From Escherichia coli (GTDB lineage Bacteria; Pseudomonadota; Gammaproteobacteria; Enterobacterales; Enterobacteriaceae), in NCBI RefSeq assembly GCF_024223415.1, contig NZ_CP100500.1: a DNA stretch of 64,000 nucleotides; one strand, 5' to 3'. Within the stretch, counting starts at the first letter, position 1; each line of letters begins with the position of its first letter. This document shows, in pieces, positions 11,850 through 63,683 of the stretch. A program made the translations under genes and the position numbers. The notes beneath the pieces were generated by a model, which saw only the letters and a list, made by a program, of their open reading frames with translations, was not told where the DNA came from and ran no database searches.

Positions 11850-11885
11850 AGCCAGTGCTGACCATCAATAGGAGGTTTTTACAAT

Positions 11886-12233: not shown

Positions 12234-12290
12234 CACGTTATCAGGCCACCGCGGTGGCCTGACTGATTTCTGAATGAAAGGAACTGATTT

Positions 12291-13318: not shown

Positions 13319-13326
13319 TCCGTGAG

Positions 13327-13355
13327 CGGGGGCGAAATGCCCCCGTGTCTTTTTT
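13327..13355 (+). terminator. Hairpin with U-tract after the capsid gene
   Basis: CGGGGGC-GAAAT-GCCCCCG then TGTCTTTTTT. Confidence 0.5.
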
Positions 13356-13369
13356 CACAGGGGGCTGAT

Positions 13370-13732
13370 ATGGCAACGAAAGAGCAAAATCTGAAACGGC
13401 TTGATGAACTGGCCCTGATTCTGGGGCGTGAGCCGGATATATCCGGGAGTGCCGCAGAGATAGCGCAGCGGGTGGCGGAATGGGAAGAGGAAGCAGAGGA
13501 CAAAAACCAGGAGAGTGATGAGAACGAAAGGCATTTGATGACGTATAGCCACTCCACTGGCGGGGATGAAATGAGCACTGTTCGTGTACTCAAAACCCTG
13601 CATGTGGCGGGAAAACATCCGCATGATGACAGTGATATGGAGATTGTTGTTACAGGTATGACTGTCAGAGTTGATCCAGTGAATGTTGCGGAACTTGTCC
13701 TGGAGGGGCTTGTTACAGATGAAAGTTATTAA
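13370..13732 (+). CDS. FI: DNA-packaging/head completion protein FI
   Basis: ATG at 13370. Acidic central region, in the lambda position between E and FII. Confidence 0.75.
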   Translation: MATKEQNLKRLDELALILGREPDISGSAAEIAQRVAEWEEEAEDKNQESDENERHLMTYSHSTGGDEMSTVRVLKTLHVAGKHPHDDSDMEIVVTGMTVRVDPVNVAELVLEGLVTDESY

Positions 13733-14081
13733 TATCAGGGATAACGGTTTTGATACAGCCATTGCCCGGGCTGATGAAACGATACGCGGGCATATGGGAA
13801 CGTCAGCCACCATTACATCCGGTGAGCAGCCCGGCGCAGTAATACGTGGTGTTTTTGATGACCCTGAAAATATCAGCTATGCCGGACAGGGCGTGCGCGT
13901 TGAAGGCTCCAGCCCGTCCCTGTTTGTCCGGACTGATGATGTGCGGCAACTGCGGCGTGGAGACACGCTGACCATCGGTGAGGAAAACTTCTGGATAGAC
14001 CGGGTTTCGCCGGATGATGGCGGAAGCTGTCATCTCTGGCTTGGGCGGGGCGTACCGCCTGCCGTTAATCGTCGCCGCTGA
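13719..14081 (+). CDS. FII: Head-tail connector FII
   Basis: AIARADETIRGHMGTSATITSGEQPGAVIRGVFDDPENISYAGQGVRVEG...GRGVPPAVNRRR is nearly identical to recalled lambda FII. Confidence 0.9.
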   Translation: MKVINIRDNGFDTAIARADETIRGHMGTSATITSGEQPGAVIRGVFDDPENISYAGQGVRVEGSSPSLFVRTDDVRQLRRGDTLTIGEENFWIDRVSPDDGGSCHLWLGRGVPPAVNRRR

Positions 14082-14092
14082 AAGGGGGATGT

Positions 14093-14668
14093 ATGGCCAT
14101 ACAGGGTCTTGAGCAGGCCGTTGAAAACCTCAGCCGTATCAGCAGAACGGCGGTGCCTGGTGCCGCCGCAATGGCCATTAACCGCGTGGCCACAACGGCG
14201 ATTAATCAGTCTTCGTCTCAGGTCGCCCGTGAAACCCGGGTGCCGAGAAAACTTGTTAAAGAGCGATCCAGACTGAAACGGGCTACGGTCAGAAATCCGA
14301 ACGCAAAAATTATCGTTAACCGCGGCGATCTTCCTGTGATTAAGCTGGGGATCAGGATGCTGGGACGTCGCCCGAACAGCATACTCAAAGCCGGTCAGCA
14401 TCGTTATCAGCGGGCATTCATCCAGCGACTGAATAATGGGCGCTGGCATGTTATGCAACGTCTGCCAGAAGCCAGGTATGCGAAGGGCAATGACGATAAG
14501 GGAAGGAAAAAGCGTAATCGTCTTCCCATTCAGGTGGTGAAAATTCCGATGTCGGCCCCACTGAAACAGGCTTTTGATGAGAACGTTAACCGTATCCGAC
14601 GCGAACGTCTGCCAAAAGAACTGAGCTATGCGCTGAAACAACAACTGAGGATTGTGATAAAGCGATGA
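14093..14668 (+). CDS. Z: Tail completion protein gpZ
   Basis: MAIQGLEQAVENLSRISRTAVPGAAAMAINRV matches lambda Z. Confidence 0.9.
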   Translation: MAIQGLEQAVENLSRISRTAVPGAAAMAINRVATTAINQSSSQVARETRVPRKLVKERSRLKRATVRNPNAKIIVNRGDLPVIKLGIRMLGRRPNSILKAGQHRYQRAFIQRLNNGRWHVMQRLPEARYAKGNDDKGRKKRNRLPIQVVKIPMSAPLKQAFDENVNRIRRERLPKELSYALKQQLRIVIKR

Positions 14669-15060
14669 AAAATACTGATATCCGTACAGCCGTACTGGAT
14701 GCACTGGAGAAGCATGACACCGGGGCGACGTTTTTTGATGGTCGCCCCGCTGTTTTTGATGAGGCGGATTTTCCGGCAGTTGCCGTTTATCTCACCGGCG
14801 CTGAATACACGGGCGAAGAGCTGGACAGCGATACCTGGCAGGCGGAGCTGCATATTGAAGTTTTCCTGCCTGCTCAGGTGCCGGATTCAGAGCTGGATTC
14901 GTGGATGGAGTCCCGGATTTATCCGGTGATGAGCGATATCCCGGCACTGTCAGATTTGATCACCAGTATGGTGGCCAGTGGCTATGACTACCGGCGCGAC
15001 GATGATGCGGGCCTGTGGAGTTCAGCCGATCTGACTTATGTCATTACCTATGAAATGTGA
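14665..15060 (+). CDS. U: Tail terminator gpU
   Basis: 131 aa in the lambda position, with a 4-nt start/stop overlap with Z. Confidence 0.9.
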
Positions 15061-15067
15061 GGACGAT

Positions 15068-15808
15068 ATGCCAACACCAAATCCTCTGGCACCGGTGAAA
15101 GGGGCCGGGACCACACTGTGGGTTTATAAGGGGAACGGTGACCCTTATGCGAACCCGCTTTCAGACAATGACTGGTCGCGTCTGGCTAAAGTTAAAGACC
15201 TGACGCCCGGCGAACTGACCGCAGATTTCTATGACGACAGCTATCTCGATGATGAAGATTCGGACTGGGCCGCGACCGGACAGGGGCAGAAATCCGCCGG
15301 AGATACCAGCTTCACGCTGGCGTGGATGCCCGGAGAGCAGGGGCAGCAGGCGCTGCTGGCGTGGTTTAATGAAGGTGATACCCGTGCCTATAAAATCCGC
15401 TTCCCGAACGGCACGGTCGATGTGTTCCGCGGCTGGGTCAGCAGCATCGGTAAGGCGGTGACAGCGAAGGAAGTGATCACCCGCACGGTGAAAGTCACCA
15501 ACGTGGGACGTCCGTCGATGGCAGAAGATCGCAGCACGCTAACAGCGGCAACCGGCATGACCGTGACGCCTGCCAGCACCTCGGTGGTGAAAGGGCAGAG
15601 CACCACGCTGACCGTGGCATTCCAGCCGGAAGGCGCAACCGACAAGAGCTTCCGTGCGGTGTCTGCGGATAAAACAAAAGCCACCGTGTCGGTCAGTGGT
15701 ATGACCATCACCGTGAAGGGCGTTGCTGCAGGCAGGGTCAACATTCCGGTCGTATCCGGTAATGGTGAACTTGCTGCGGTTGCAGAAATCAACGTCACCG
15801 CCAGTTAA
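15068..15808 (+). CDS. V: Major tail tube protein gpV with C-terminal Ig-like (Big_2-type) domain
   Basis: Starts [22 protein letters not shown] as in lambda V. The C-terminal [23 protein letters not shown] segment is an Ig-like repeat. Confidence 0.9.
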
Positions 15809-15823
15809 TCCGGAGAGTCAGCG

Positions 15824-16246
15824 ATGTTCCTGAAAAACGAATCATTTGAACATAACGGCGTGACCGTCACGCTTTCTGAACTGTCAGCCCTGCAGCGTAT
15901 TGAGCATCTTGCCTGGTTGAAAGAGCAGGAAAAAAAGGCTGAATCCAGTGGCAACCTGCAGGTGTCTGTAGAGGATCTTATCAGAGGCGGGGCGTTTCTG
16001 GTGGCGATGTCTCTGTGGCATAACCATCCGCAGAAGACAAAGCTGCTGCCCATGAATGAAGCCATTACGCAGATTGAGCAGGAAGTGCTTACCACCTGGC
16101 CCACGGAGGCAATTGCTCAGGCTGAAAACGTGGTGTTACGTCTGTCCGGAATGTCTGAGTTTGTTGTGAATAATGCCCCTGAACAGGCAGATGACGCCGG
16201 GCCTGCAGAGCCTGTTTCTGCGGGAAAGTGTTCGACGGTGAGCTGA
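15824..16246 (+). CDS. G: Tail assembly chaperone gpG
   Basis: 140 aa, ending just after the slippery site. Confidence 0.9.
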   Translation: MFLKNESFEHNGVTVTLSELSALQRIEHLAWLKEQEKKAESSGNLQVSVEDLIRGGAFLVAMSLWHNHPQKTKLLPMNEAITQIEQEVLTTWPTEAIAQAENVVLRLSGMSEFVVNNAPEQADDAGPAEPVSAGKCSTVS

Positions 16247-16662
16247 GTTTTGCCCTGAAACTGGCGCGTGAGATGGGGCGACCCGACTGGCGCGCCATGC
16301 TTGCCGGGATGTCATCCACGGAGTATGCCGACTGGCACCGCTTTTACAGTACCCATTATTTTCATGATGTTCTGCTGGATATGCACTTTTCCGGGCTGAC
16401 GTACACCGTGCTCAGCCTGTTTTTCAGCGATCCGGATATGCATCCGCTGGATTTCAGTCTGCTGAACCGGCGCGAGGCTGACGAAGAGCCTGAAGATGAT
16501 GTGCTGATGCAGAAAGCGGCAGGGCTTGCCGGAGGCGTCCGCTTTGGCCCGGACGGGAATGAAGTTATCCCTGCATCCCCGGATGTGGCGGACATGACGG
16601 AGGATGACGTAATGCTGATGACAGTATCAGAAGGGATCGCAGGAGGAGTCCGGTATGGCTGA
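15824..16662 (+). CDS. T: Tail assembly chaperone gpGT produced by -1 programmed frameshift
   Basis: The -1 frame after the slip reads GKVFDGELSFALKLAREMGRPDWRAM.. (lambda T-like) up to the stop at 16662. Confidence 0.85.
16222..16228 (+). promoter_or_regulatory. G GGA AAG slippery heptamer for the G/GT frameshift
   Basis: Same heptamer, in the same zero-frame phasing (G GGA AAG), as recalled for lambda G-T. Confidence 0.85.
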
Positions 16663-19216
16663 ACCGGTAGGCGATCTGGTCGTTGATTTAAGTCTGGATG
16701 CGGCCAGGTTTGACGAGCAGATGGCCAGAGTCAGGCGTCATTTTTCCGGTACGGAAAGTGATGCGAAAAAAACAGCGGCAGTCGTTGAACAGTCAATGAA
16801 CCGGCAGGCGCTGGCTGCACAGAAAGCGGGGATTTCCGTCGGACAGTATAAAGCCGCCATGCGTATGCTGCCTGCACAGTTCACCGACGTGGCCACACAG
16901 CTTGCAGGCGGGCAGAGTCCGTGGCTGATCCTGCTGCAACAGGGTGGTCAGGTGAAGGACTCCTTCGGCGGGATGATCCCCATGTTCAGGGGGCTTGCCG
17001 GTGCGATCACCCTGCCGATGGTCGGGGCCACCTCGCTGGCGGTGGCGACCGGTGCGCTGGCGTATGCCTGGTATCAGGGCAACTCAACCCTGTCCGATTT
17101 CAACAAAACGCTGGTCCTTTCCGGCAATCAGGCGGGACTGACGGCAGATCGTATGCTGGTCCTGTCCAGAGCCGGGCAGGCGGCAGGGCTGACGTTTAAC
17201 CAGACCAGCGAGTCACTCAGCGCACTGGTTAAGGCGGGGGTAAGCGGTGAGGCTCAGATTGCGTCCATCAGCCAGAGTGTGGCGCGTTTCTCCTCTGCAT
17301 CCGGCGTGGAGGTGGACAAGGTCGCTGAAGCCTTCGGGAAGCTGACCACAGACCCGACGTCGGGGCTGACGGCGATGGCGCGCCAGTTCCATAACGTGAC
17401 GGCGGAGCAGATTGCGTATGTTGCTCAGTTGCAGCGTTCCGGCGATGAGGCAGGGGCATTGCAGGCGGCGAACGAGGCCGCAACGAAAGGGTTTGATGAC
17501 CAGACCCGCCGCCTGAAAGAGAACATGGGCACGCTGGAAACCTGGGCAGACAGGACAGCACGGGCATTCAAATCCATGTGGGATGCGGTGCTGGATACTG
17601 GTCGTCCTGATACCGCGCAGGAGATGCTGATTAAGGCAGAGGCCGCGTTTAAGAAAGCGGACGATATCTGGAATCTGCGCAAGGATGATTATTTTGTTAA
17701 CGATGAAGCGCGGGCGCGTTACTGGGATGATCGTGAAAAGGCCCGTCTTGCGCTTGAAGCCGCCCGAAAGAAGGCTGAGCAGCAGAGTCAACAGGACAAA
17801 AATGCGCAGCAGCAGAGCGATACCGAAGCGTCACGGCTGAAATATACCGAAGAGGCGCAGAAGGCTTACGAACGCCTGCAGACACCGCTGGAGAAATATA
17901 CCGCCCGTCAGGAAGAACTGAACAAGGCACTGAAAGACGGAAAAATCCTGCAGGCAGATTACAACACGCTGATGGCGGCGGCGAAAAAGGATTATGAAGC
18001 GACGCTGAAAAAGCCGAAACAGTCCGGCGTGAAGGTGTCTGCGGGCGATCGTCAGGAAGACAGTGCTCATGCCGCCCTGCTGACGCTTCAGGCAGAACTC
18101 CGGACGCTGGAGAAGCATGCCGGAGCAAATGAGAAAATCAGCCAGCAGCGCCGGGATTTGTGGAAGGCGGAGAGTCAGTTCGCGGTACTGGAGGAGGCGG
18201 CGCAACGTCGCCAGCTGTCTGCACAGGAGAAATCCCTGCTGGCGCATAAAGATGAGACGCTGGAGTACAAACGCCAGCTGGCTGCACTTGGCGACAAGGT
18301 TACGTATCAGGAGCGCCTGAACGCGCTGGCGCAGCAGGCGGATAAATTCGCACAGCAGCAACGGGCAAAACGGGCCGCCATTGATGCGAAAAGCCGGGGG
18401 CTGACTGACCGGCAGACAGAACGGGAAGCCACGGAACAGCGCCTGAAGGAACAGTATGGCGATAATCCGCTGGCGCTGAATAACGTCATGTCAGAGCAGA
18501 AAAAGACCTGGGCGGCTGAAGACCAGCTTCGCGGGAACTGGATGGCAGGCCTGAAGTCCGGCTGGAGTGAGTGGGAAGAGAGCGCCACGGACAGTATGTC
18601 GCAGGTAAAAAGTGCAGCCACGCAGACCTTTGATGGAATTGCACAGAATATGGCGGCGATGCTGACCGGCAGTGAGCAGAACTGGCGCAGCTTCACCCGT
18701 TCCGTGCTGTCCATGATGACAGAAATTCTGCTTAAGCAGGCAATGGTGGGGATTGTCGGGAGTATCGGCAGCGTCATTGGCGGTGCTGCCGGTGGTGGCG
18801 CATCAGTGTCAGGCGGTACAGCCATTCAGGCTGCTGCGGCAAAATTCCATTTTGCGACCGGGGGATTTACGGGAACCGGCGGCAAATATGAGCCAGCGGG
18901 GATTGTTCACCGTGGTGAGTTTGTCTTCACGAAGGAGGCAACCAGCCGGATTGGCGTGGGAAATCTCTACCGGCTGATGCGCGGCTATGCCACTGGTGGT
19001 TATGTCGGTGGCACCGGAAGTCCGGCACAAATGCGGCGTTCAGAGGGTATCAGGTTTGAGCAGAACAACAACGTGGTGATTCAGAACGACGGTACGAATG
19101 GTCTGCCAGGTCCACAGATGCTGAAGGCGGTGTATGACATGGCCCGCAAGGGTGCCCGTGATGAAATTCAGACACAGATGCGTGATGGTGGTCTGTTCTC
19201 CGGAGGTGGACGATGA
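16655..19216 (+). CDS. H: Tape measure protein gpH
   Basis: 853 aa, coiled-coil rich, with a Gly-rich C-terminal region, in the lambda position. Confidence 0.95.
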   Translation: MAEPVGDLVVDLSLDAARFDEQMARVRRHFSGTESDAKKTAAVVEQSMNRQALAAQKAGISVGQYKAAMRMLPAQFTDVATQLAGGQSPWLILLQQGGQVKDSFGGMIPMFRGLAGAITLPMVGATSLAVATGALAYAWYQGNSTLSDFNKTLVLSGNQAGLTADRMLVLSRAGQAAGLTFNQTSESLSALVKAGVSGEAQIASISQSVARFSSASGVEVDKVAEAFGKLTTDPTSGLTAMARQFHNVTAEQIAYVAQLQRSGDEAGALQAANEAATKGFDDQTRRLKENMGTLETWADRTARAFKSMWDAVLDTGRPDTAQEMLIKAEAAFKKADDIWNLRKDDYFVNDEARARYWDDREKARLALEAARKKAEQQSQQDKNAQQQSDTEASRLKYTEEAQKAYERLQTPLEKYTARQEELNKALKDGKILQADYNTLMAAAKKDYEATLKKPKQSGVKVSAGDRQEDSAHAALLTLQAELRTLEKHAGANEKISQQRRDLWKAESQFAVLEEAAQRRQLSAQEKSLLAHKDETLEYKRQLAALGDKVTYQERLNALAQQADKFAQQQRAKRAAIDAKSRGLTDRQTEREATEQRLKEQYGDNPLALNNVMSEQKKTWAAEDQLRGNWMAGLKSGWSEWEESATDSMSQVKSAATQTFDGIAQNMAAMLTGSEQNWRSFTRSVLSMMTEILLKQAMVGIVGSIGSVIGGAAGGGASVSGGTAIQAAAAKFHFATGGFTGTGGKYEPAGIVHRGEFVFTKEATSRIGVGNLYRLMRGYATGGYVGGTGSPAQMRRSEGIRFEQNNNVVIQNDGTNGLPGPQMLKAVYDMARKGARDEIQTQMRDGGLFSGGGR

Positions 19217-19542
19217 AAACCTTCCGCTGGAAAGTGAAACCCGGTATGGATGTGGCTTCGGTCCCTTCTGTAAGAAAGGTGCGCTTTGGTGATGGCTATT
19301 CCCAGCGAGCGCCTGCCGGGCTGAATGCCAACCTGAAAACGTACAGCGTGACGCTTTCTGTCCCCCGTGAGGAGGCCACGGTACTGGAGTCGTTTCTGGA
19401 AGAGCACGGGGGCTGGAAATCCTTTCTGTGGACGCCGCCTTATGAGTGGCGGCAGATAAAGGTGACCTGCGCAAAATGGTCGTCGCGGGTCAGTATGCTG
19501 CGTGTTGAGTTCAGCGCAGAGTTTGAACAGGTGGTGAACTGA
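19213..19542 (+). CDS. M: Minor tail protein gpM
   Basis: 109 aa in the lambda order, overlapping the H stop. Confidence 0.9.
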   Translation: MKTFRWKVKPGMDVASVPSVRKVRFGDGYSQRAPAGLNANLKTYSVTLSVPREEATVLESFLEEHGGWKSFLWTPPYEWRQIKVTCAKWSSRVSMLRVEFSAEFEQVVN

Positions 19543-20240
19543 TGCAGGATATCCGGCAGGAAACACTGAATGAATGCACCCGTGCGGAGCAGTCGGCCAG
19601 CGTGGTGCTCTGGGAAATCGATCTGACAGAGGTCGGTGGAGAACGTTATTTTTTCTGTAATGAGCAGAACGAAAAAGGTGAGCCGGTCACCTGGCAGGGG
19701 CGACAGTATCAGCCGTATCCCATTCAGGGGAGTGGTTTTGAACTGAATGGCAAAGGCACCAGTACGCGCCCCACGCTGACGGTTTCTAACCTGTACGGTA
19801 TGGTCACCGGTATGGTGGAAGATATGCAGAGTCTGGTCGGCGGAACGGTGGTCCGGCGTAAAGTTTATGCCCGTTTTCTGGATGCGGTGAACTTCGTCAA
19901 CGGAAACAGTGACGCCGATCCGGAGCAGGAGGTTATCAGCCGCTGGCGCATCGAGCAGTGCAGTGATTTGACAGCGGTCAGCGCGACCTTTGTACTGGCC
20001 ACGCCGACGGAAACGGACGGCGCTGTTTTTCCGGGACGTATCATGCTGGCCAACACCTGCACCTGGACCTATCGCGGCGATGAGTGCGGTTATAGCGGTC
20101 CGGCTGTCGCGGATGAATATGACCAGCCAACGTCCGATATCACGAAGGATAAATGCAGCAAATGCCTGAGTGGCTGTAAGTTCCGCAATAACGTCGGCAA
20201 CTTTGGCGGTTTTCTTTCCATTCACAAACTTTCGCAGTAA
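19542..20240 (+). CDS. L: Minor tail protein gpL
   Basis: 232 aa with a C-terminal Cys cluster (CTWTYRGDECGY..CSKCLSGC), as in lambda L. Confidence 0.9.
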   Translation: MQDIRQETLNECTRAEQSASVVLWEIDLTEVGGERYFFCNEQNEKGEPVTWQGRQYQPYPIQGSGFELNGKGTSTRPTLTVSNLYGMVTGMVEDMQSLVGGTVVRRKVYARFLDAVNFVNGNSDADPEQEVISRWRIEQCSDLTAVSATFVLATPTETDGAVFPGRIMLANTCTWTYRGDECGYSGPAVADEYDQPTSDITKDKCSKCLSGCKFRNNVGNFGGFLSIHKLSQ

Positions 20241-20244
20241 TTCC

Positions 20245-20988
20245 ATGACAGAGACAGAATCAGCGATTCTGGCGCACGCCCGGCGATGTGCGCCAGCGGA
20301 GTCGTGCGGCTTCGTGGTGAGAGCGCCGGAGGGGGAAAGATATTTCCCCTGCGTGAATATCTCCGGTGAGCCGGAGGCGTATTTCCGGATGTCGCCGGAG
20401 GACTGGCTGCAGGCAGAGATGCAGGGTGAGATTGTGGCGCTGGTCCACAGTCACCCCGGTGGTCTGCCCTGGCTGAGTGAGGCCGACCGGCGGCTGCAGG
20501 TGCAGAGTGATTTGCCGTGGTGGCTGGTCTGCCGGGGGGCGATTCACAAGTTCCGCTGTGTGCCGCATCTCACCGGGCGGTGCTTTGAGCACGGGGTGAC
20601 GGACTGTTACACGCTGTTCCGGGATGCTTACCATCTGGCGGGAATTGAGATGCCGGATTTTCATCGCGGGGATGACTGGTGGCGTAACGGTCAGAATCTC
20701 TATCTTGACAATATGGAGGCGACTGGTTTTTACCGTGTCGCACTGACAGAGGCGCAGCCCGGCGACGTGCTGCTGTGCTGTTTTGGTTCATCGGTGCCGA
20801 ATCATGCCGCCATTTACTGCGGCGACGGCGGGCTGCTGCACCATATTCCTGAACAACTGAGCAAACGAGAGAGGTATACCGACAAATGGCAGCGACGCAC
20901 ACACTCCCTCTGGCGTCACCGGGCATGGCACGCATCTGCCTTTACGGGGATTTGCAACGATTTGGCCGCCGCATCGACCTTCGTGTGA
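20245..20988 (+). CDS. K: Tail tip protein gpK (JAB/MPN + NlpC/P60-like)
   Basis: MTETESAILAHARRCAPAESCGFVV...HSHPGG... is nearly identical to recalled lambda K. Confidence 0.9.
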   Translation: MTETESAILAHARRCAPAESCGFVVRAPEGERYFPCVNISGEPEAYFRMSPEDWLQAEMQGEIVALVHSHPGGLPWLSEADRRLQVQSDLPWWLVCRGAIHKFRCVPHLTGRCFEHGVTDCYTLFRDAYHLAGIEMPDFHRGDDWWRNGQNLYLDNMEATGFYRVALTEAQPGDVLLCCFGSSVPNHAAIYCGDGGLLHHIPEQLSKRERYTDKWQRRTHSLWRHRAWHASAFTGICNDLAAASTFV

Positions 20989-21533
20989 AAACGGGAGCCG
21001 AAGCCATCCGGGCGCTGGCCACGCAGCTCCCTGCGTTTCGTCAGAAACTGAGCGACGGCTGGTATCAGGTGCGTATTGCCGGGCGTGATACAGGCGAAAA
21101 CGAATTATCAGCCCGTCTTAATGAACCGCTGGCAAATGGTGCCGTGATCCACATCGTGCCGCGTCTGGCGGGAGCCAAACGTGGTGGTGTGTTTCAGGCA
21201 GTGCTGGGCGCGGCGCTGATTGCGGTGGCATGGTGGAACCCTGCAGGCTGGCTGGGGGCTGCGGCTTTATCGGGCATGTATGCGGCAGGGGCCAGTATGG
21301 TGCTCGGTGGTGTGGCGCAGATGCTGGCACCGAAAGCCAAAACCCCCCGCACACAGACAACGGATAACGGCAAACAGAACACCTATTTTTCTTCACTGGA
21401 TAACATGGTTGCCCAGGGGAATGCTCTGCCCGTTCTGTACGGTGAAATGCGCGTGGGGTCACGGGTAATTTCGCAGGAGATCAGCACAGCGGATGAGGGG
21501 GATGGCGTCCGGGTTGTGGTGATTGGTCGCTGA
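20886..21533 (+). CDS. I: Tail assembly protein gpI
   Basis: MAATHTLPLASPGMARICLYGDLQRFGRRIDLRV matches lambda I and overlaps the K 3' end, as in lambda. Confidence 0.9.
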   Translation: MAATHTLPLASPGMARICLYGDLQRFGRRIDLRVKTGAEAIRALATQLPAFRQKLSDGWYQVRIAGRDTGENELSARLNEPLANGAVIHIVPRLAGAKRGGVFQAVLGAALIAVAWWNPAGWLGAAALSGMYAAGASMVLGGVAQMLAPKAKTPRTQTTDNGKQNTYFSSLDNMVAQGNALPVLYGEMRVGSRVISQEISTADEGDGVRVVVIGR

Positions 21534-21551
21534 TGAAAAACGTTTTATGTG

Positions 21552-21575
21552 AAACCGCCTCCGGGCGGTTTTGTC
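21552..21575 (+). terminator. Hairpin with U-rich tail between I and J
   Basis: AAACCGCC-TCCG-GGCGGTTT then TGTCGTTT. Confidence 0.45.
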
Positions 21576-21593
21576 GTTTATGGAGCGTGAGGA

Positions 21594-24500
21594 ATGGGTA
21601 AAGGCAGCAGTAAGGGGCATACCCCGCGCGAAGCGAAGGACAACCTGAAGTCCACGCAGTTGCTGAGTGTGATCGATGTCATCAGCGAAGGGCCGATACA
21701 AGGACCGGTGGATGGATTAAAAAGCGTGCTGCTGAACGGTACGCCGGTGCTGGACAGTGAGGGGAATACCAATATATCCGGCGTCACGGTGGTATTCCGG
21801 GCCGGTGAGCAGGAGCAGACGCCGCCGGAGGGATTTGAATCCTCCGGCTCCGAGACGGTGCTGGGTACGGAAGTGAAGTACGACACGCCGATTACCCGGA
21901 CCATCACGTCGGCAAACATCGACCGTCTGCGCCTGACCTTCGGTGTGCAGGCACTGGTGGAAACCACCTCAAAGGGGGACCGGAATCCGTCGGAAGTCCG
22001 CCTGCTGGTTCAGATACAGCGTAACGGTCGCTGGTTAACGGAAAAAGACATCACCATTAAGGGCAAAACCACTTCACAGTATCTGGCTTCGGTGGTGGTG
22101 GATAACCTGCCGCCGCGCCCGTTCAGTATCCGGATGCGCAGGATGACACCGGACAGCACCACAGACCAGCTGCAGAACAAAACGCTCTGGTCGTCATACA
22201 CCGAAATCATCGATGTGAAACAGTGCTACCCGAACACGGCACTGGTCGGTGTGCAGGTGGATTCGGAGGAGTTCGGCAGCCAGCAGGTGAGCCGTAATTA
22301 TCATTTTCGCGGGCGCATTCTGCAGGTGCCGTCGAACTATAACCCGCAGACGCGGCAATACAGCGGTATCTGGGACGGAACGTTTAAACCGGCATACAGC
22401 GATAACCCGGCCTGGTGTCTGTGGGATATGCTGACCCACCCGCGCTACGGCATGGGGAAACGTGTTGGCGCAGCGGATGTGGACAAATGGGCGCTGTATG
22501 TCATCGGCCAGTACTGCGACCAGTCGGTGCCGGACGGCTCTGGTGGCACGGAGCCGCGCATCACCTGTAATGCCTGGCTGACCAGGCAGCGTAAGGCGTG
22601 GGATGTGCTCAGTGATTTCTGCTCGGCGATGCGCTGTATGCCGGTATGGAACGGGCAGACGCTGACGTTCGTGCAGGACCGACCGTCGGATAAGGTGTGG
22701 ACCTATAACCGCAGTAATGTGGTGATGCCGGATGATGGCGCGCCGTTCCGCTACAGCTTCAGCGCCCTGAAGGACCGCCATAATGCCGTTGAGGTGAACT
22801 GGAGTGACCCGGATAACGGCCAGGAGACGGCGACAGAGCTTGTGGAGGACACGCAGGCCATTGCCCGTTACGGTCGTAACGTCACGAAGATGGATGCCTT
22901 TGGCTGTACCAGCCGGGGGCAGGCACACCGCGCCGGGCTGTGGCTGATTAAAACGGAGCTGCTGGAAACGCAGACCGTGGACTTCAGCGTGGGTGCCGAA
23001 GGGCTTCGCCATGTGCCGGGCGATGTCATTGAAATCTGTGATGATGACTATGCCGGTATCAGCACCGGTGGGCGCGTGCTGGCGGTGAACAGCCAGACCC
23101 GGACGCTGACGCTCGATCGTGAAATCACGCTGCCATCCTCCGGTACCACGCTGATAAGCCTGGTTGACGGAAGTGGCAATCCGGTCAGCGTGGAGGTTCA
23201 GTCCGTCACTGACGGCGTGAAGGTGAAAGTGAGCAGTGTTCCTGACGGCGTTGCTGAATACAGCGTGTGGGGGCTGAAGCTGCCGACGCTGCGCCAGCGC
23301 CTGTTCCGCTGCGTGAGTATCCGTGAGAACGACGACGGCACGTATGCCATCACTGCCGTGCAGCATGTACCGGAAAAAGAGGCCATCGTGGATAACGGGG
23401 CGCACTTTGACGGCGACCAGAGCGGAACGGTGAATGGTGTCACGCCGCCAGCGGTGCAGCACCTGACCGCAGAAGTCACCGCAGACAGCGGGGAATATCA
23501 GGTGCTGGCGCGCTGGGACACGCCGAAGGTGGTGAAGGGCGTGAGCTTCCTGCTTCGCCTGACCGTGGCAGCGGATGACGGCAGTGAGCGGCTGGTCAGC
23601 ACGGCCCGGACGACGGAAACCACATACCGCTTCAGGCAACTGGCGCTGGGGCGTTACACGCTGACGGTCCGGGCGGTAAATGCCCGGGGGCAGCAGGGAG
23701 ACCCGGCGTCGGTATCGTTCCGGATTGCCGCACCGGCAGCGCCGTCGCGGATTGAGCTGACGCCGGGCTATTTTCAGATAACCGCCACGCCGCATCTTGC
23801 GGTTTACGATCCGACGGTACAGTTTGAGTTCTGGTTTTCGGAAAAGCGGATTACCGATATCAGGCAGGTTGAAACCACAGCCCGTTATCTTGGTACCGGA
23901 AGGCAGTGGCTTGTCTCCGGCCAGAATATTAAACCTGGCCATGATTATTACTTTTATATCCGCAGTGTTAACACTGTCGGTAAATCGGCATTCGTGGAGG
24001 CAGTCGGTCGGGCGAGTAATGATCCTGCCGGTTACCTTAATTTTTTCAGGGGGGCGATAAATAAAACGCATCTGGGACGGGAGATCAATGAACGCATTGA
24101 TGCCTCTGCACGGCGCACTGAAGTTGAGCAACTGGAGAATGCGATTAACCGCGAAATGACGCAGCTGGAGAAAGATGTGAGGCAGCGTGCGGAGCGTGAT
24201 ATCGCAGAGGTGACGAAAAAAATCACGGCGTCTGAAAACAGCATAACGGAACTGGTGGCGAAAAAGAGCGGTGAACAGTCAATGGCCATTGCGGAAGTTG
24301 ACAGAAAAGTTGACAGGATGGGAAGCGAAATCCGGCAGACAGTAAGCAGGAGCACGGAGGAGAACAGCCGACAGATAGCGCAGATCAGACAGTATGTTGA
24401 TGATAAGGGAAGTCAGATCACACAGAGCACGGATAAAAAACTGGGATCCTGGAATGCCAGCATTGAGCAGATACAGAAAGTTCAGGAGGACACGCGCCGG

Positions 24501-34839: not shown

Positions 34840-36840
34840 TCATCCTTGTTGCTGAAGCATGGGGAATAATTGTTCGCAAAGCAAAACACCGTTATTCATT
34901 GCTTCTACCCGTGCCTCGCTTTCTGTATTACGAAATTGTCCCAACACATGTGCCAGCCGATAAAAACCCACCGCGGTGAGGTCATTCGCCAGCAACTCTG
35001 CCTGACCAATAGCACTCTGTTCCTGATAGCGCCAGCCGTTATGGAGCAGTTGAATAAGTAACGCCTGGCAGCGTATCAGCAACTGATGAGCAGTAGACGG
35101 CACAGGCAAAACGCTGGCAGAAGGTAGCGGTGCCACAGGCGTAGTTTCTGCGTCCAGCGCCCAGGCACGGGTTTTTGTCATCATCACCCGTGGTTCCAGT
35201 GTCAATTGCCCTTCAACAAAACTGACAAAGCCAGAAACCAGACACACGGGGTCGTCTGTTTGTTGCAAAAGCGCCGCCATGCGTTCAACGGCATAAGGTG
35301 CGCTGGCTGAGGCTGGTAATGATAACGTCAGCACATTATCTTCCCCTTCGCCGCTAATGACCTGCGCATCCAGCGTCTGGCGGCTGCTGTCCCAACCGAG
35401 CGAAATACACTCAGCGACCGGCAGAATAAATAAGTTATCGACCTGATTAAGAGGCCGTATGCAGGCGGGGGGACGCTGGCGTAAATATTCCCGCAAAGCC
35501 ACAATGCCCGGCTGGCGTAACGGCGCGCTCAACATTTGCCAGGCATCAGGCGACAGCGGCACAACGCTGCTTAAGCGGTTGCGGGTAGCTAACAGCAGCT
35601 CGCCATCGGCACTGCGTTTTGCTGCTTGTGAAACAATTTGCCCGCCCGCCAGTGCGCCAGCCTGAAAACTAAACAGCCGACGCGTAGCTGCCGGTGAGTT
35701 TTCCTGTTCACTTCGCGGCCAACTGCGCGAAAGGTGCAAAATACTGCCGGTGTCGGGATCGGTAAACCAGATGCGTAAACCATAATGCTCAATATCCTGC
35801 CAGCAACGCATACCTAAAGACACCAGCCGCAGATGATCAAGCTTTGCTTCTCCGGCAATGCCAGAGCCAACGACCGTGCGCCACGGCACAGGAGGAACTT
35901 CACCAATACTGTCGCGCCGGGCCATCTCTTGTGCGCAATTTAATCGACTGTTTAATGCCGCAAGCTGATGTAAGCATTCTCCGGCATTATAGTGGCTGGC
36001 GCGGGCGTGGAAGGCATCAACGCTGGCGCGCAGTTGCCGTAGCGATTCACTCACCCAGCGCCAGTTGCAGGTCTCTGCCGCCTGCAATGCGCGGTTGAAT
36101 GCTGCCTCGTAATGGATGAGCGGCTGGCTGATGCCGCCAAGCCATAATGTCTGGCTTAATTGCTGAACATATTGACGACACGCGTTGCCTTCTTCGCTGG
36201 CAAACGGATCGTCAGATGATGTGACGTGTTCGCTGCGCATCTGCCAGATTAAATGGTTAAATTCTGCTTGCTGCGCTTTGGCCTCGACGAAGGCCTGTAC
36301 CGCCAGTACGACATGTTCGCAAAGTGTGCCTTCAATACAATCACAACGGGCGAAACGAATACTGCTGCGGGAATAAAAACGCACATCGCTCATCGGTAAG
36401 CGGGCAGAGGGAATTTCACCCGGCGCACAGAACAACTCAATGGTGATGCCTTTAGCGACCAGCGCCTGTGCGCGTTTGCGGGTAGCATCGGGAAGGGTAG
36501 CCAGTTCTTCCAGCCAGATTGCCGGATCCCACTCTTCTTCTTTTTCCGTAGACTGAGTGGTGGCACAAAGTCGTTGATAACTTAACACCAGCATCACGCG
36601 ATGACGGCACATACCGTTGGCCCCGCAACTGCACTGAGCCTCTTTCAGTGCCTGGCCGTTCGCCAGCTGGGTACGGACACCGTCACTGAAGGTGGCGATT
36701 AAAGCGTCGTTCTCATGGCTGATCTCCGGGACGTTGCCATTTTCCAGTTCCTTAAGACTGCGCTTAACAAAACCGGCATTGCTTAACGCCGTCAGGGCCT
36801 GCGGTGTCAGTTCTAATAATTCCGGACGTAGTGAATTCAT
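34840..36840 (-). CDS. yehQ: SWIM zinc-finger protein YehQ
   Basis: Start MNSLRPELLEL, with a 4-nt ATGA overlap with the yehP stop. Two CxC-x(n)-CxH motifs are present: CSCGANGMCRH and CDCIEGTLCEH. Confidence 0.9.
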   Translation of the reverse strand: MNSLRPELLELTPQALTALSNAGFVKRSLKELENGNVPEISHENDALIATFSDGVRTQLANGQALKEAQCSCGANGMCRHRVMLVLSYQRLCATTQSTEKEEEWDPAIWLEELATLPDATRKRAQALVAKGITIELFCAPGEIPSARLPMSDVRFYSRSSIRFARCDCIEGTLCEHVVLAVQAFVEAKAQQAEFNHLIWQMRSEHVTSSDDPFASEEGNACRQYVQQLSQTLWLGGISQPLIHYEAAFNRALQAAETCNWRWVSESLRQLRASVDAFHARASHYNAGECLHQLAALNSRLNCAQEMARRDSIGEVPPVPWRTVVGSGIAGEAKLDHLRLVSLGMRCWQDIEHYGLRIWFTDPDTGSILHLSRSWPRSEQENSPAATRRLFSFQAGALAGGQIVSQAAKRSADGELLLATRNRLSSVVPLSPDAWQMLSAPLRQPGIVALREYLRQRPPACIRPLNQVDNLFILPVAECISLGWDSSRQTLDAQVISGEGEDNVLTLSLPASASAPYAVERMAALLQQTDDPVCLVSGFVSFVEGQLTLEPRVMMTKTRAWALDAETTPVAPLPSASVLPVPSTAHQLLIRCQALLIQLLHNGWRYQEQSAIGQAELLANDLTAVGFYRLAHVLGQFRNTESEARVEAMNNGVLLCEQLFPMLQQQG

Positions 36841-41451: not shown

Positions 41452-41490
41452 AAATAAAAAAACCTGCTGGTGAGGCAGGTTCTTTTATTT
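41452..41490. terminator. Bidirectional terminator separating yehK from yehL
   Basis: ACCTGC-TGGTGAG-GCAGGT, flanked by AAATAAAAAA upstream and TCTTTTATTT downstream. Confidence 0.7.
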
Positions 41491-41650
41491 ACTATTTTCA
41501 GGCCTAACACCACAGCCTGTGCAACATCGTGTTCCAACGAACGAATTATAACCACGGCTGGACCCCGTTGCAATTAAGATAATGAGATTTATAATCCAGG
41601 CCATTGGGACGTTGCGCCGGATCGGACCAATTTGAATTATTTAGAGTATA

Positions 41651-59197: not shown

Positions 59198-60022
59198 TTA
59201 TCGCATTATGCCCATGAAGCCATGTACGCCCATATACACACCGACTAAGCCAATCAACAGACTGGAAAAATAGGGGGCGCGTTTAGCGAGAGTGTTAAAT
59301 CCGCTCCAGCGTTTTGCGACCTGCTGAACGCTGATTGCTGCGCCAACGCCTACGGTGACAAGCGTTAACGCCAGGCCAATGCTGAAACTGACGACCAGTG
59401 TTGCGCCCAGTGTCAGGGCTTTCAACTGAATGCAAATCAACAGCACGGTAATTGCTGCCGGACAGGGGATAAGACCACCTGTTAAGCCAAATAACAAAAT
59501 TTGCCAGTTGGTGACCTCTCTACCATCAAAGCGTCGTTTAATATCATTGGCATGGGCTCGTGCATGGGCATCCTGATACTCGCCATGTTCGTGATGGTGA
59601 TGATGTCCATGGTCGTGGTGATCTTCGTGATCGTGGTGATGATGTTCATGATCATACTCGTGCATATTCTCCAGCCAGTTGCGTTCGCCGCGCCAGGTAC
59701 GCCAGAACATCCAGAACGCGGTGCCAATAATGATCACTGCGGAAATCAGCTGGAGCCACGGTTCTGCTGATTGAGCAGTAAAGCGCTTGCTGATCACCAT
59801 CCCGCCAAAGGCAATTAACCAGACCACTGCGGTATGCGAAATAGTTGCTGCCAGTCCGAGCATCACCGCCTGTTTAATGGTGCCTTTGATGGCGATGATA
59901 AACGCCGCCATCATCGTTTTTGAGTGCCCTGGTTCCAGGCCATGAAGCGCACCAAGTAAGATGGCGCTGGGGATGAAGAACCAGGCGTTTCCTTGCTGAA
60001 GAAGAGTTGTAAATTCGGTCAT
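59198..60022 (-). CDS. rcnA: Ni/Co efflux protein RcnA
   Basis: 274-aa membrane protein with the His-rich loop HEYDHEHHHHDHEDHHDHGHHHHHEHG. Confidence 0.95.
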   Translation of the reverse strand: MTEFTTLLQQGNAWFFIPSAILLGALHGLEPGHSKTMMAAFIIAIKGTIKQAVMLGLAATISHTAVVWLIAFGGMVISKRFTAQSAEPWLQLISAVIIIGTAFWMFWRTWRGERNWLENMHEYDHEHHHHDHEDHHDHGHHHHHEHGEYQDAHARAHANDIKRRFDGREVTNWQILLFGLTGGLIPCPAAITVLLICIQLKALTLGATLVVSFSIGLALTLVTVGVGAAISVQQVAKRWSGFNTLAKRAPYFSSLLIGLVGVYMGVHGFMGIMR

Positions 60023-60059
60023 GATAATAATTCTTAGTATTAATTCGGCAATCTGATTC

Positions 60060-60095: not shown

Positions 60096-60143
60096 GATTA
60101 ATAGTGCTATGATTTTTCATATTCTTGTTAACCAGGTGTTGCC

Positions 60144-60416
60144 ATGTCTCATACAATCCGTGATAAACAGAAACTGAAAGCGCGTGCCAGTAAGATTCAG
60201 GGCCAGGTCGTGGCGCTCAAGAAAATGCTCGACGAGCCGCACGAATGCGCTGCAGTTTTACAACAGATTGCTGCTATCCGTGGCGCGGTAAACGGTCTGA
60301 TGCGGGAAGTGATTAAAGGTCATCTGACGGAACACATCGTTCACCAGGGGGATGAGCTAAAACGTGAAGAAGATCTGGATGTCGTTCTGAAGGTGCTGGA
60401 TTCATATATCAAATAA
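60144..60416 (+). CDS. rcnR: Ni/Co-responsive repressor RcnR (CsoR/RcnR family)
   Basis: 90 aa starting [22 protein letters not shown]. Confidence 0.95.
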
Positions 60417-60512
60417 TTTATTAACGCGATTGTAAAACTGCCGTTTTTCCTCGTTTACAACGCGTGCGCTGGACATTACCATCCTCCTCTGCGATTTATC
60501 ATCGCAACCAAA

Positions 60513-60557
60513 CGACTCGGGGTGCCCTTCTGCGTGAAGGCTGAGAAATACCCGTAT
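60513..60557 (+). promoter_or_regulatory. 5' part of the thiM TPP riboswitch aptamer (P1 5' strand, P2, P3, CUGAGA pyrimidine-sensor arm), truncated at 60557
   Basis: GACTCGGGGTGCCCTTCTGCGTGAAGGCTGAGAAATACCCGTAT equals the first ~44 nt of the recalled crystallised E. coli thiM aptamer. The expected continuation CACCTGATCTGGATAATGCCAGCG is absent. Confidence 0.8.
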
Positions 60558-60745
60558 TTTCTCATTTAGTGTTTTTTGTGGTTCGGGGTTGTTCGTGGTT
60601 GTTTGTGTATGTGTTTGATATATATTGAATTATTGTGTTTTCTTGTTTGTTGTTGTTCGTCGTTGTTCGTAGAGCTTCAACAAAATGTGTGGTCAGTTGT
60701 GTGGTCAGTTTTTTGAGGCTGGAGGACTGAAAAGAGGATCTGATA

Positions 60746-61969
60746 GTGGGAAAAGCACTAAACAAACTGAGCGATTCGACGTTAAAAAAATTGGCGTCTG
60801 TCCAAGCAGAAAAAGAGCGTTTTTACTCCGACGGGGGCGGGCTGGAGATTAAACACTCAAAGGGCGGCAAATTAACCTGGTATTTCCGGTACCGAACGGG
60901 AGGCCGTGAGGTTGCCGCAGAGCGGTTAAAGCTGGGGGCTTACCCTGAATTGTCGCTGAAAGCTGCAAGGGAAAAACGCGCACAGTGCCGGGCATGGCTG
61001 GCTGAGGGTAAAAACCCCCGTTATGAGTTGTGCGCCACAGTACAGGAAGCGCTAAAACCCGTTACGGTGAAGGAGGCGATTAACTACTGGCTGGATGAAT
61101 ATGCGAAGGATAACCGCAAAGACTACATAAAGCTGGTGCAACGTATGGATAAGCACATCATTTGCCATATAGGGGCAATTCCCCTTGATAAGTGTGATAC
61201 AAGGCAGTGGATCGCATGTTTTGACCGTGTACGAAAAAAAGCACCAGTAGCAGCAGGGCACGTCATGCAAACCTGCAAACAGGCGCTAAAGTTCTGCCGC
61301 AGGAGACGCTACGCGTTCAGTAATGCCCTGGACGATTTGATCGTCAGCGATGTGGGTAAGAGAGCAGAAATTCGCGAGAGGGTGCACAGCAACAGCGAAT
61401 TAAAGGAAATTTTACGCGCTATTGATGGTGATGTGTTCGCGCCTTACTACAGCGCGTTAATGCGCTTGCTGATTGTGTTCGGGTGCAGAACGGCAGAGGT
61501 CAGACTTTCAGAGATCAAAGAATGGGATCTGAAAGAAATGTTGTGGACAGTGCCAAAAGAGCATAGCAAAACGAAGGTAACGATATTCAGGCCAATCCCC
61601 GATGGCATTTTGCCGTTCATTCAGAAGCTGGTGGAGCAGAACCGGCATACAGGGTTATTACTCGGAGAACTGAAAAAAGATACCACGGTAGCGCAATATG
61701 GGCGAAATGCGCATAAGCGGCTTAACCAGGAACACTGGACGCTGCATGACTTTCGCCACACGTTTACAACGATGCTGAACGATTTAGGTGTCGATCCGCA
61801 TATCGTGGAGCACATCACAGCGCATCAGATGCCCGGTCAGCAAAAAACCTATAACCATTCACGCTATTTACAGGCGAAGCGAGACGCTCTGAATCTGTGG
61901 GTTGAGCGCCTCGATGTGCTGGCTGGAAATCATGAAAATATTGTCATATTAAGGGCTGAAAATGAATAA
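60746..61969 (+). CDS. int: Tyrosine integrase, P4/CP4-57 type (DUF4102 N-terminal arm-binding domain)
   Basis: GTG start after AGAGGA. The N-terminal ..FYSDGGGLEIKHSKGGKLTWYFRYR..GAYPELSLKAAREKR is typical of P4-like integrases. The C-terminal HDFRHT...Y catalytic region is present. Confidence 0.9.
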   Translation: MGKALNKLSDSTLKKLASVQAEKERFYSDGGGLEIKHSKGGKLTWYFRYRTGGREVAAERLKLGAYPELSLKAAREKRAQCRAWLAEGKNPRYELCATVQEALKPVTVKEAINYWLDEYAKDNRKDYIKLVQRMDKHIICHIGAIPLDKCDTRQWIACFDRVRKKAPVAAGHVMQTCKQALKFCRRRRYAFSNALDDLIVSDVGKRAEIRERVHSNSELKEILRAIDGDVFAPYYSALMRLLIVFGCRTAEVRLSEIKEWDLKEMLWTVPKEHSKTKVTIFRPIPDGILPFIQKLVEQNRHTGLLLGELKKDTTVAQYGRNAHKRLNQEHWTLHDFRHTFTTMLNDLGVDPHIVEHITAHQMPGQQKTYNHSRYLQAKRDALNLWVERLDVLAGNHENIVILRAENE

Positions 61970-62747
61970 TCTGGGCCGTGTATATCATACGCTGCCAATG
62001 GCAGCTAAAAAAATGGGATGTACTGTAGAGGATATTCTACATTTTGGTGCAACTAACCGACTTGAAATATGTGCGTATATTGATGATATTGAACAGAGAA
62101 AAGATTATTGCACTTTTAATGTGTTTTTTGATAATGAAGATAGCGAGAATAGTTTTTCTAAAACTATAAATAAATATAATTCCATATTTACTGACATGTA
62201 TGAAATATCATTGTTTAATTATAATGATGAGTTTTGTGTTGATGATGAGCGTATGGTTATTGAAGGTTTGTATGCTAATCATATGAAAGGCTTTTTTGCA
62301 ATACCATCTGAATTTCTTGTCGAAGTTGAATTGTCAAGTGCCTGTGAAATCATAAATCTATCGCCTCGTTATTTATATACACCGAAAGGTTATGGTGATT
62401 ATATTCGGTTGGATAGTATAGAAGGTCTTTCTATTCCAGAAAACAGGCTCGTGATATTCGATAGTGAGATATCGGGTTTTAATTATCAAAAGAAACCTAA
62501 ATATGCCGGAGGTGAAAGAGAATCACCTAAAACCAGAGCTAAAAAAGCCGAGATAATACCTGCTCTCATAAAACTGATCCCTGAGATGCAAGATGTGGAT
62601 TTGGAGGATACACCCGTATCCAAAATTGCAGAAATGATAGAGGTTATTGCTGCACAAAGAGGGGTTGAGTTACCTAGCACTCACAGGCAGACATGGCAGA
62701 AATATTTAGGGCGTGATGCTGGTGACGTTCCAAAACGTCAAAAGTGA
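61962..62747 (+). CDS. Hypothetical AT-rich cargo protein (261 aa), possible N-terminal Xis/MerR-like HTH
   Basis: The start overlaps the int stop (ATGAATAA). The N-terminus YHTLPMAAKKMGCTVEDILHFGATNRLE is HTH-like, the middle is acidic and aromatic, and the C-terminus is basic. Confidence 0.6.
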   Translation: MNNLGRVYHTLPMAAKKMGCTVEDILHFGATNRLEICAYIDDIEQRKDYCTFNVFFDNEDSENSFSKTINKYNSIFTDMYEISLFNYNDEFCVDDERMVIEGLYANHMKGFFAIPSEFLVEVELSSACEIINLSPRYLYTPKGYGDYIRLDSIEGLSIPENRLVIFDSEISGFNYQKKPKYAGGERESPKTRAKKAEIIPALIKLIPEMQDVDLEDTPVSKIAEMIEVIAAQRGVELPSTHRQTWQKYLGRDAGDVPKRQK

Positions 62748-62837: not shown

Positions 62838-63062
62838 ATGAATCAAAATACACAATTTCAATCACTATCAGATCGCGTAATCCGTGAGGATGAATGCCGT
62901 AAGTTAACAGGAGTGTGCCGCACTACACGCTACGAACTGGAGAAAAAAGGGAGCTTTCCGTCTCGCCGTAATCTTGGTGGGCGTTCTGTAGGTTGGCTGC
63001 TGTCCGAGGTTATGGAATGGGTTAAAAGCCGGGATCGCATTAATTCAGGCAAGGCAGCGTAA
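62838..63062 (+). CDS. alpA: AlpA-family transcriptional regulator/excisionase-like protein
   Basis: 74 aa. RVIREDECRKLTGVCRTTRYELEKKGSFPSRRNLGGRSVGWLLSEVMEWV is the typical AlpA/Vis HTH pattern. Confidence 0.85.
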   Translation: MNQNTQFQSLSDRVIREDECRKLTGVCRTTRYELEKKGSFPSRRNLGGRSVGWLLSEVMEWVKSRDRINSGKAA

Positions 63063-63485: not shown

Positions 63486-63683
63486 TTATTCTGATTCTTT
63501 GGCCTTGCGGCGCTGTTCATATTTTAATTTGCGTCCACAGGCATCTAAGACCCATGCGGAAAAATTAGCACTAGGATTAGTTAATTTTTCTTGTTCAACG
63601 CTGGCATCAATCCCATCTATAAGCTCATGTGGGAATCGAATATTTTTCTTTGCTGATTTGTTGTTTGTGTTACCACTAGACAT
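63486..63683 (-). CDS. YlcI/YnfO-family small protein (DUF3950-like), candidate switch regulator
   Basis: 65 aa. NIRFPHELIDGI...NFSAWVLDACGRKL is paralogous to 5547..5741. A GAGGTG Shine-Dalgarno sequence is present. Confidence 0.7.
   Translation of the reverse strand: MSSGNTNNKSAKKNIRFPHELIDGIDASVEQEKLTNPSANFSAWVLDACGRKLKYEQRRKAKESE

Follow-up and report, generated by a model that had tools for sequence, protein, structure and literature searches.

A phage-inducible chromosomal island (PICI) of Escherichia coli, EcCI224 (CP018948.1, nucleotides 1961620-1972242, 10.6 kb), has been catalogued with the attachment (att) core AGAAATACCCGTAT and the att gene frmR-thiM (Fillol-Salom et al. 2018, Table S1, PMC6092414), a site that is listed as intergenic in that work. 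The capsid-forming PICIs (cf-PICIs), whose prototype is EcCIEDL933, share four of six E. coli attB sites with the classical PICIs (Alqurainy et al., bioRxiv 10.1101/2022.09.08.507074), which fits a thiM site that hosts both classical (EcCI224) and capsid-forming elements. The leader of thiMD, whose product ThiD is required for de novo thiamine synthesis, contains a riboswitch for thiamine pyrophosphate (TPP). This RNA was reportedly described by Winkler and coworkers in 2002 as a TPP-dependent translational OFF switch. In the 64,000-nucleotide stretch of E. coli DNA analyzed here (contig NZ_CP100500.1 of the RefSeq assembly GCF_024223415.1, hereafter referred to as the window) the 5' half of the thiM TPP aptamer is followed by foreign DNA, and nucleotides 60544 to 60745 very probably constitute the left attachment site (attL) of a phage satellite of the PICI family that extends past the end of the window.

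Nucleotides 60100 to 60557 of the window are 100% identical to E. coli K-12 and include rcnR (60144..60416, + strand), an open reading frame (ORF) that carries this name in the syntenic genomes annotated by RefSeq, the thiM promoter region, and the 5' half of the thiM TPP aptamer (60508..60557, + strand), which according to the Rfam alignments and the identity to K-12 comprises the 5' strand of P1, P2, P3, J3/2 and the start of J2/4. Within this identical stretch the sequence TTTACA-17-TACCAT (60454..60482, + strand) is, by its match to the consensus, a candidate for the native thiM promoter. The homology to K-12 ends exactly behind AGAAATACCCGTAT (60544-60557, + strand), the only copy of this 14-bp core in the window, and the insert begins at nucleotide 60558. 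Thus, nucleotides 60513 to 60557 read ...CGACTCGGGGTGCCCTTCTGCGTGAAGGCTGAGAAATACCCGTAT and the sequence goes on from 60558 as TTTCTCATTTAGTGTTTTTTGTGG..., while the leader of K-12 continues differently: in the empty site (L001), where RefSeq annotates the TPP riboswitch, ...GAAATACCCGTAT (ending in CCCGTAT) leads into CACCTGATCTGGATAATGCCAGCGTAGGGAAG, and the thiM gene begins 82 nt past the 14-bp core. A preliminary description of this DNA had proposed that the element was inserted inside the aptamer, that the remainder of the aptamer was replaced at 60558 by GT-rich repeats, and that a P4-type integrase gene followed after about 190 nt. These proposals hold, since the K-12 sequence is as given there, the non-homologous arm that follows the core (60558..60745, + strand, 188 nt) has a G+T content of 75%, as compared to 52% for the whole window, and contains repeats, and the integrase ORF begins at nucleotide 60746, 189 nt past the junction. 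Chance resemblance is ruled out by the 458 nt of perfect identity to K-12 and by the expected occurrence of the 14-mer, which is 0.01 times in the window. The gene order rcnA-rcnR-[leader] agrees between the window, where the start of rcnA lies in the left flank at 59800-60023 (− strand), and the genomes annotated by RefSeq.

A megablast search of 5,426 complete E. coli genomes with a 901-nt query (window nucleotides 60100 to 61000) produced matches in 5,414 of them. Nearly all matches end at query position 458, equivalent to window nucleotide 60557, and the entire junction is present in 71 genomes. Direct queries with the junctions located attL in 75 and the right attachment site (attR) in 74 of the 5,426 genomes (about 1.4%); these figures replace an early estimate of about 300 occupied genomes that had been drawn from surplus BLAST places. 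The intact K-12-type 211-bp site is found in 4,728 genomes of this set, and most of the remaining ones differ upstream of the aptamer and have an intact riboswitch, e.g. O157:H7 genomes with an O-island in place of the thiM promoter region. Both occupied and empty thiM sites exist within O157:H7. The O157:H7 island is about 2.2 kb long (L003, 13680-15945; also present in Gim1-1, L016), replaces the DNA from the rcnR stop codon to about 10 nt before the aptamer, and includes genes for a small outer-membrane protein, a hypothetical protein and an HTH-like protein; the promoter region of the O157:H7 thiM riboswitch therefore differs from that of K-12 with or without the satellite. Of the 11 attL matches obtained in a scan of metagenome contigs, 10 represent junctions of the E. 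coli type, and the remaining one (L019) arose by chance in GC-rich DNA of unrelated origin.

The insert was traced in four complete genomes that share the junction, PEC178 (L002), O157:H7 MB41-1 (L003), JNE170426 (L014) and Ecol_224 (L015). In each of them a second copy of AGAAATACCCGTAT closes the insert, and directly behind it come CACCTGATCTGG..., the remainder of the aptamer, its expression platform, and thiM and thiD, both intact. All four match K-12 at attR with 100% identity over a stretch that begins with the core and includes the thiM start codon. The core-to-core distances are 10,609 bp in Ecol_224, 14,405 bp in JNE170426, 15,456 bp in PEC178 and 16,079 bp in MB41-1. Core and position, which were derived independently, are the same as in the published EcCI224 entry, the element of Ecol_224 is EcCI224, and nucleotides 60544 to 60557 of the window are therefore a copy of a PICI-specific attachment core. 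Besides the identical 14-bp core, the window element shares with EcCI224 its place in the chromosome, with rcnR (given as frmR in the table) on one side and thiM on the other, the presence of int and alpA at the left end, and conserved P and P' arms. It differs from EcCI224 in having a low-GC ORF after int where the latter has a DUF6387 gene, and EcCI224 has a smaller packaging module, whereas the closest complete-genome relatives of the window element have a full capsid-forming module.

The main text of PMC6092414 includes neither the word "thiM" nor the word "riboswitch", and a literature search that combined thiM or riboswitch with integrase, attB, PICI or island, and that did not extend to the cf-PICI att-site table, found no paper on riboswitch disruption. 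The use of the thiM att site is thus already catalogued, and what seems to be new is that the site lies within the TPP aptamer, which is split without repair. The idea put forward in the preliminary description that a riboswitch would be an unusual attachment site for a P4-like integrase has to be qualified in the same way: non-tRNA targets are normal in this satellite family and the site had been listed, although its location in a riboswitch went unremarked in PMC6092414. The element resembles P4 (integrated at leuX) and CP4-57 (integrated at ssrA) in the architecture of the integrase, in the use of a short and highly conserved target within a structured RNA, and in the location of int beside the junction. 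Elements that target tRNA or tmRNA genes bring a replacement 3' end in attP, so that the RNA gene is regenerated. Here, unlike in P4 and CP4-57, the duplication comprises just 14 bp, and neither junction regenerates the RNA element; the only tRNA genes of the window are located at 1777-2009, and with an mRNA leader as its target the element is not a tRNA/tmRNA island.

The window covers the first 3.4 kb of the element. The gene next to the junction (60746..61969, + strand) codes for a 407-amino acid tyrosine integrase (PHROG 1, integrase) with the P4-type architecture, i.e., an N-terminal Arm-DNA-bind_3/DUF4102 domain (PF13356, 2.3e-18, residues 8-94) and a C-terminal recombinase domain (Phage_integrase, PF00589, 7.1e-17, residues 216-374). 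The sequences GCRTAEV and HDFRHT of its translation, matched by eye, presumably represent the box I arginine and the HxxR motif of the family. The protein is 99% identical to an E. coli cluster of 588 members. It is followed by an ORF of 261 amino acids (61962..62747, + strand) that has a G+C content of 25-35% and no match in Pfam, PHROG or PADLOC. In relatives the slot between int and alpA is filled by other genes (coding for hypothetical proteins or DUF6387), and it is likely an accessory or defence-type cargo position. Next is a gene for an AlpA-family regulator/excisionase (62838..63062, + strand; PF05930, 4.4e-16; PHROG 2790), the hallmark regulator of Gram-negative PICIs. The arrangement of int at the left end followed by alpA on the same strand is the PICI layout of Fillol-Salom et al. 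2018. The last feature is a DUF3950/YlcI-YnfO-like small protein (63486..63683, − strand; PF13132; PHROG 949), which belongs to the satellite regulatory region and is also annotated in the relatives.

The three larger elements traced in complete genomes are capsid-forming. Their first part includes int, the variable ORF, and the genes for AlpA, a YlcI-like protein, an Icd-like protein, DUF4222, a primase/helicase, SSB and PerC, and their second part those for the major capsid protein, a prohead protease, portal, head-closure and connector proteins, HNH, TerS and TerL. The Ecol_224 element is a smaller version that has a protease-capsid fusion and not the capsid-forming packaging set. As replication genes the relatives with the same junction, 10.6-16.1 kb in size, have DUF927, a primase or a RepA helicase, and RefSeq annotates no tail or lysis genes in any of the four. 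The size given for Gram-negative PICIs by the criteria of Fillol-Salom et al. 2018 is about 10-15 kb. All five annotated occupants of the thiM site that were examined are satellites and none is a prophage. The gene layout of the three larger elements is the one described for cf-PICIs (bioRxiv 10.1101/2022.09.08.507074), including the capsid, protease, portal, head-closure, connector, HNH, TerS and TerL genes and the lack of tails; the packaging module of the window element would lie beyond the window end. EcCIEDL933 was considered as an O157 occupant of the thiM site and rejected, since the 15.5-kb HNH/terL element of EDL933 is located at 1.68 Mb and its integrase is an orthologue (similarity 0.978; Table S2, PMC6092414) of that of EcCICFT073, which sits at ycfD-phoQ (PMC6092414). 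The right end of the PEC178 cf-PICI (L002, about 35365-35527) has three direct TTGCGGGTTAT and inverted ATAACCCGC repeats around a very AT-rich spacer. These repeats are iteron-like and typical of a PICI replication origin, and they are placed behind the terminase genes, near attR.

The effect of the insertion on the riboswitch was analyzed with the Rfam TPP model (RF00059, gathering threshold 54.3 bits). The intact K-12 aptamer scores 71.2 bits, the attL of the window (60508-60603) 19.5 bits as a partial match, and the attR of PEC178 36.2 bits with P1-5', P2 and P3 unmatched; a scan of the whole window found no hit at the gathering level. Thus, although the 5' half in the window derives from the thiM leader aptamer, it is not a complete P1-P5 aptamer, and neither junction contains a scorable one. 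The Rfam alignment assigns to the core the last part of J3/2 (AGAA), the P2 3' strand (AUACCCG), and the first bases of J2/4. As a consequence attL retains P1-5', P2 and P3, which include the pyrimidine-sensor arm, and attR is left with P1-3', the platform, and the pyrophosphate-sensor arm formed by P4/P5. The two halves, which are the same as in K-12 (the 3' half and platform in the four genomes), are 10-16 kb apart and would be on separate transcripts. The possibility, raised in the preliminary description, that the far end of the element supplies a surrogate promoter and 5' half-aptamer is not borne out by the Rfam alignment, in which the positions of P1-5', P2 and P3 at attR align to unrelated AT-rich satellite DNA, nor by a crude promoter scan of the last 950 nt before thiM, where the only sigma-70-like site on the + strand lies as far as about 715 nt from the core, on its upstream side. 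The NCBI annotation pipeline PGAP, which marks the TPP riboswitch when the site is empty, leaves it out in the four occupied genomes, and in PEC178 it calls a 270-nt hypothetical coding sequence on the opposite strand that ends just upstream of thiM.

The folding of the leaders suggests what may happen to the translation of thiM. With the aptamer pairs enforced, the probability that the Shine-Dalgarno sequence (SD, AGGAGC) of the K-12 leader is unpaired is 0.01, and it is 0.43 when the leader folds freely; this control reproduces the OFF switch, in which the enforced aptamer buries the SD. In the minimum free energy structure of the free K-12 leader a long hairpin, GCCAGCGUAGGGAAG…CUUCUUC…GGC, ties up the anti-SD. 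This hairpin lies wholly 3' of the core. All attR leaders, for which 7-507 nt of satellite DNA before the core were included in the models, are predicted to fold the same anti-SD hairpin, and the probability of an unpaired SD is 0.30-0.56 among them. On the strength of these models we somewhat favor the view that thiMD expression would be TPP-blind in occupied strains.

A model for the integration can be proposed as follows. The P4-type integrase of the satellite would recombine attP with the 14-bp AGAAATACCCGTAT of the host in the thiMD leader and, because only the 14-bp core is duplicated, the aptamer is split. The thiM promoter region, P1-5', P2 and P3 stay at attL, now facing int; the native promoter-like site left there is directed across the half-aptamer toward int, and no terminator is predicted between the two. 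P4/P5, P1-3', the expression platform and thiMD come to lie 10-16 kb away at attR, behind the right end of the satellite. There the thiM leader would lose TPP binding and may adopt the ON-state hairpin with the anti-SD held by GGGAAG, and thiMD might be transcribed by read-through from the rightward operon of the satellite or from a weak satellite promoter.

An attP was rebuilt from the PEC178 element; an attP of the satellite would read …TTAGTA|AGAAATACCCGTAT|TTTCTCATT…. The rebuilt attP contains an exact 60-bp block as a direct repeat, with one copy in each arm; relative to the first base of the core the copies lie at -123 and +109. The P' arm of the window (60558..60745), which has GTTGTTCGT-type repeats and is conserved in the O157 and Salmonella elements, includes this block at 60653..60712 (+ strand), and the block recurs exactly in the P arm, at the right end, of the PEC178 element. 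The block holds two GTTGTTCGT-type repeats and two copies of TGTGTGGTCAGT (60686-60709 in the window), and more copies of GTTGTTCGT are found at +44 and +54. The TGTGTGGTCAGT and GTTGTTCGT repeats are putative arm-type Int sites, because their presence in both arms and the arm-binding domain of Int match the classical lambda/P4 arrangement. The core region of attP, AGAAATAC-CC-GTATTTTCT, is a near-perfect inverted repeat, as expected of core-type half-sites. A variant core, AGAAATGCCCGTAT, with an A to G change at position 7, occurs at attL only, in O157:H7 MB41-1 (L003, 15987-16000) and in a metagenome contig (L024, 495-516). It co-occurs with one P' arm variant in two host backgrounds, while the attR of MB41-1 (L003, 32066-32079) and the empty O157 site keep the A. 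Since AGAAATGCCCGTAT travels with the P' arm variant, it may be that the attL core from position 7 on comes from the element, which weakly suggests that strand exchange takes place within the first six bases of the core.

An exact pattern scan found no genome with attL among the GTDB species representatives, and a search for the integrase locus in the same collection confirmed nothing. With the species reference genomes unoccupied, the breadth of the family was taken from the contexts of protein clusters. The homologues of Int with 71-76% identity include two that NCBI names Salmonella enterica. They are located downstream of rcnB, and in the alignment the elements enter the Salmonella thiM aptamer at exactly the same base (…GGCTGAGAAATACCCGTAT|TTTCTAA…). 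The Salmonella elements keep the TGTG(T/A)GGTCAGT tandem (TGTGWGGTCAGT) within an otherwise diverged arm. An Int clade with 67% identity (L007/L008) is located beside cspD, in keeping with the cspD-clpS site already published for PICIs, and clades with 60% and 55% identity are found in Salmonella, beside an SBP_bac_5 gene, and in Citrobacter, beside a DNA methylase gene (L009-L013). These sister integrase clades flank similar AlpA-bearing satellites. As judged from these contexts, riboswitch targeting would be a property of one integrase sub-clade and the wider family is spread over ordinary intergenic sites, which argues for sequence-driven and against RNA-structure-driven targeting. The sister clades are a ready series for following how att specificity shifts within one family.

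Several other readings of the locus must be weighed. The window ends inside the element and the second junction is beyond it, which is compatible with a chimeric contig in which the thiM leader was joined by misassembly to an unrelated integrase-bearing element; we give this practically no credence, as the same attL recurs in some 75 finished and independent genomes of E. coli as well as in 10 metagenome contigs, 74 genomes have the reciprocal attR with the same 14-bp direct repeat, and one such element was published (PMC6092414). Very little also speaks for a P4-like satellite or a small prophage instead of a PICI. The Arm-DNA-bind_3 domain of the integrase is of the P4 type, and Icd-like and AlpA genes are common to P4-like elements, but the RefSeq annotation of the relatives, to which no dedicated search was added, names no sid, psu, delta, P4-alpha, tail or lysis genes, the relatives are laid out like PICIs or have the packaging module of cf-PICIs, and the att site is assigned to a PICI in the literature (PMC6092414). 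A defective element that became fixed as a domesticated island, so that the split riboswitch is a permanent trait of a lineage, would account for the lack of an attP junction in the viral and metagenome collections searched (IMG/VR and metagenome contigs), and the mismatch between the attL (AGAAATGCCCGTAT) and attR (AGAAATACCCGTAT) cores of O157 MB41-1 could hinder excision. We regard this possibility as unlikely, because Int (407 amino acids) and AlpA are intact in the window, occupied and empty sites are found within one serotype, and family members excise and transfer (PMC6092414; bioRxiv 10.1101/2022.09.08.507074). Furthermore, the arms and the site are common to four structurally different elements (10.6-16.1 kb), a sign that integration took place repeatedly and independently, and in two host backgrounds the G variant is joined to one particular P' arm.

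The split could also be adaptive, as in systems of regulated gene integrity or active lysogeny, with excision toggling thiMD between a TPP-regulated and a TPP-blind or silent state and the thiM promoter driving int. The orientation of the native promoter-like site toward int with no predicted terminator between, the fact that the four occupied genomes examined all preserve the 3' half of the aptamer and the platform perfectly, and the retention of the ON-state hairpin agree with such a switch. We consider it a rather improbable one: sister clades of the integrase use ordinary intergenic sites, so that the choice of target looks driven by sequence and not by function, only about 1.4% of the genomes are occupied, and perfect conservation over some 100 nt would be expected anyway for recent insertions. 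Slightly less doubtful, yet still speculative, is the notion that integration acts as a reversible genetic switch on thiamine salvage, in which occupancy would remove TPP sensing from thiMD, leave its ON-fold leader cut off from the promoter, and place int under the host thiM promoter and an orphan pyrimidine-sensor arm. If this were true, the switch would couple the thiamine physiology of the host to the excision of the satellite and no mobile element would have been described before it that uses, and functionally disables, a riboswitch aptamer as attB.

Some observations weigh against the PICI reading and the predictions drawn from it. Among complete genomes the nearest relative reaches 94.7% identity across 81% of the 3.4 kb of the element present in the window, and the completeness, the capsid genes and the mobility of this particular copy are beyond the part in view. 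The attP circular junction TAGTAAGAAATRCCCGTATTTTCT is absent from IMG/VR and from the metagenome contigs, and the excision of this lineage is suggested by population polymorphism. The predictions on expression are based on thermodynamic folding and on the crude promoter scan, which found no promoter for int in either arm, a result that may reflect low sensitivity of the scan. In view of the lack of a consensus promoter near attR, thiMD could be nearly silent instead of constitutively on.

About 1.4% of the finished E. coli genomes, some of O157:H7 included, have thiMD with a physically split riboswitch, and some Salmonella contigs have the same split leader at attL. Occupied strains, empty strains, and strains with different satellites form a natural allelic series for assessing the importance of the thiM riboswitch in vivo. 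The 14-bp target is conserved between Escherichia and Salmonella, the two genera compared here, which fits the reported spread of cf-PICIs across species and genera. The omission of the riboswitch feature by RefSeq in occupied genomes calls for caution in the use of such annotations.

The window also includes a lambdoid prophage (about 4600-24000) with terminase, portal, tape-measure and tail-fibre genes that are about 95% identical to those of phage 21 and lambda-like phages. A phage-type tRNA-Met/Arg/Thr cluster (1777-2009) lies ahead of this prophage, which is located about 36 kb from the satellite and could in principle serve it as a tail-donor helper. Nucleotides 41456 to 41531 (− strand) contain a full-length OrzO-P antitoxin small RNA (RF02083, 99.9 bits), which points to a zorO-orzO type I toxin-antitoxin locus.

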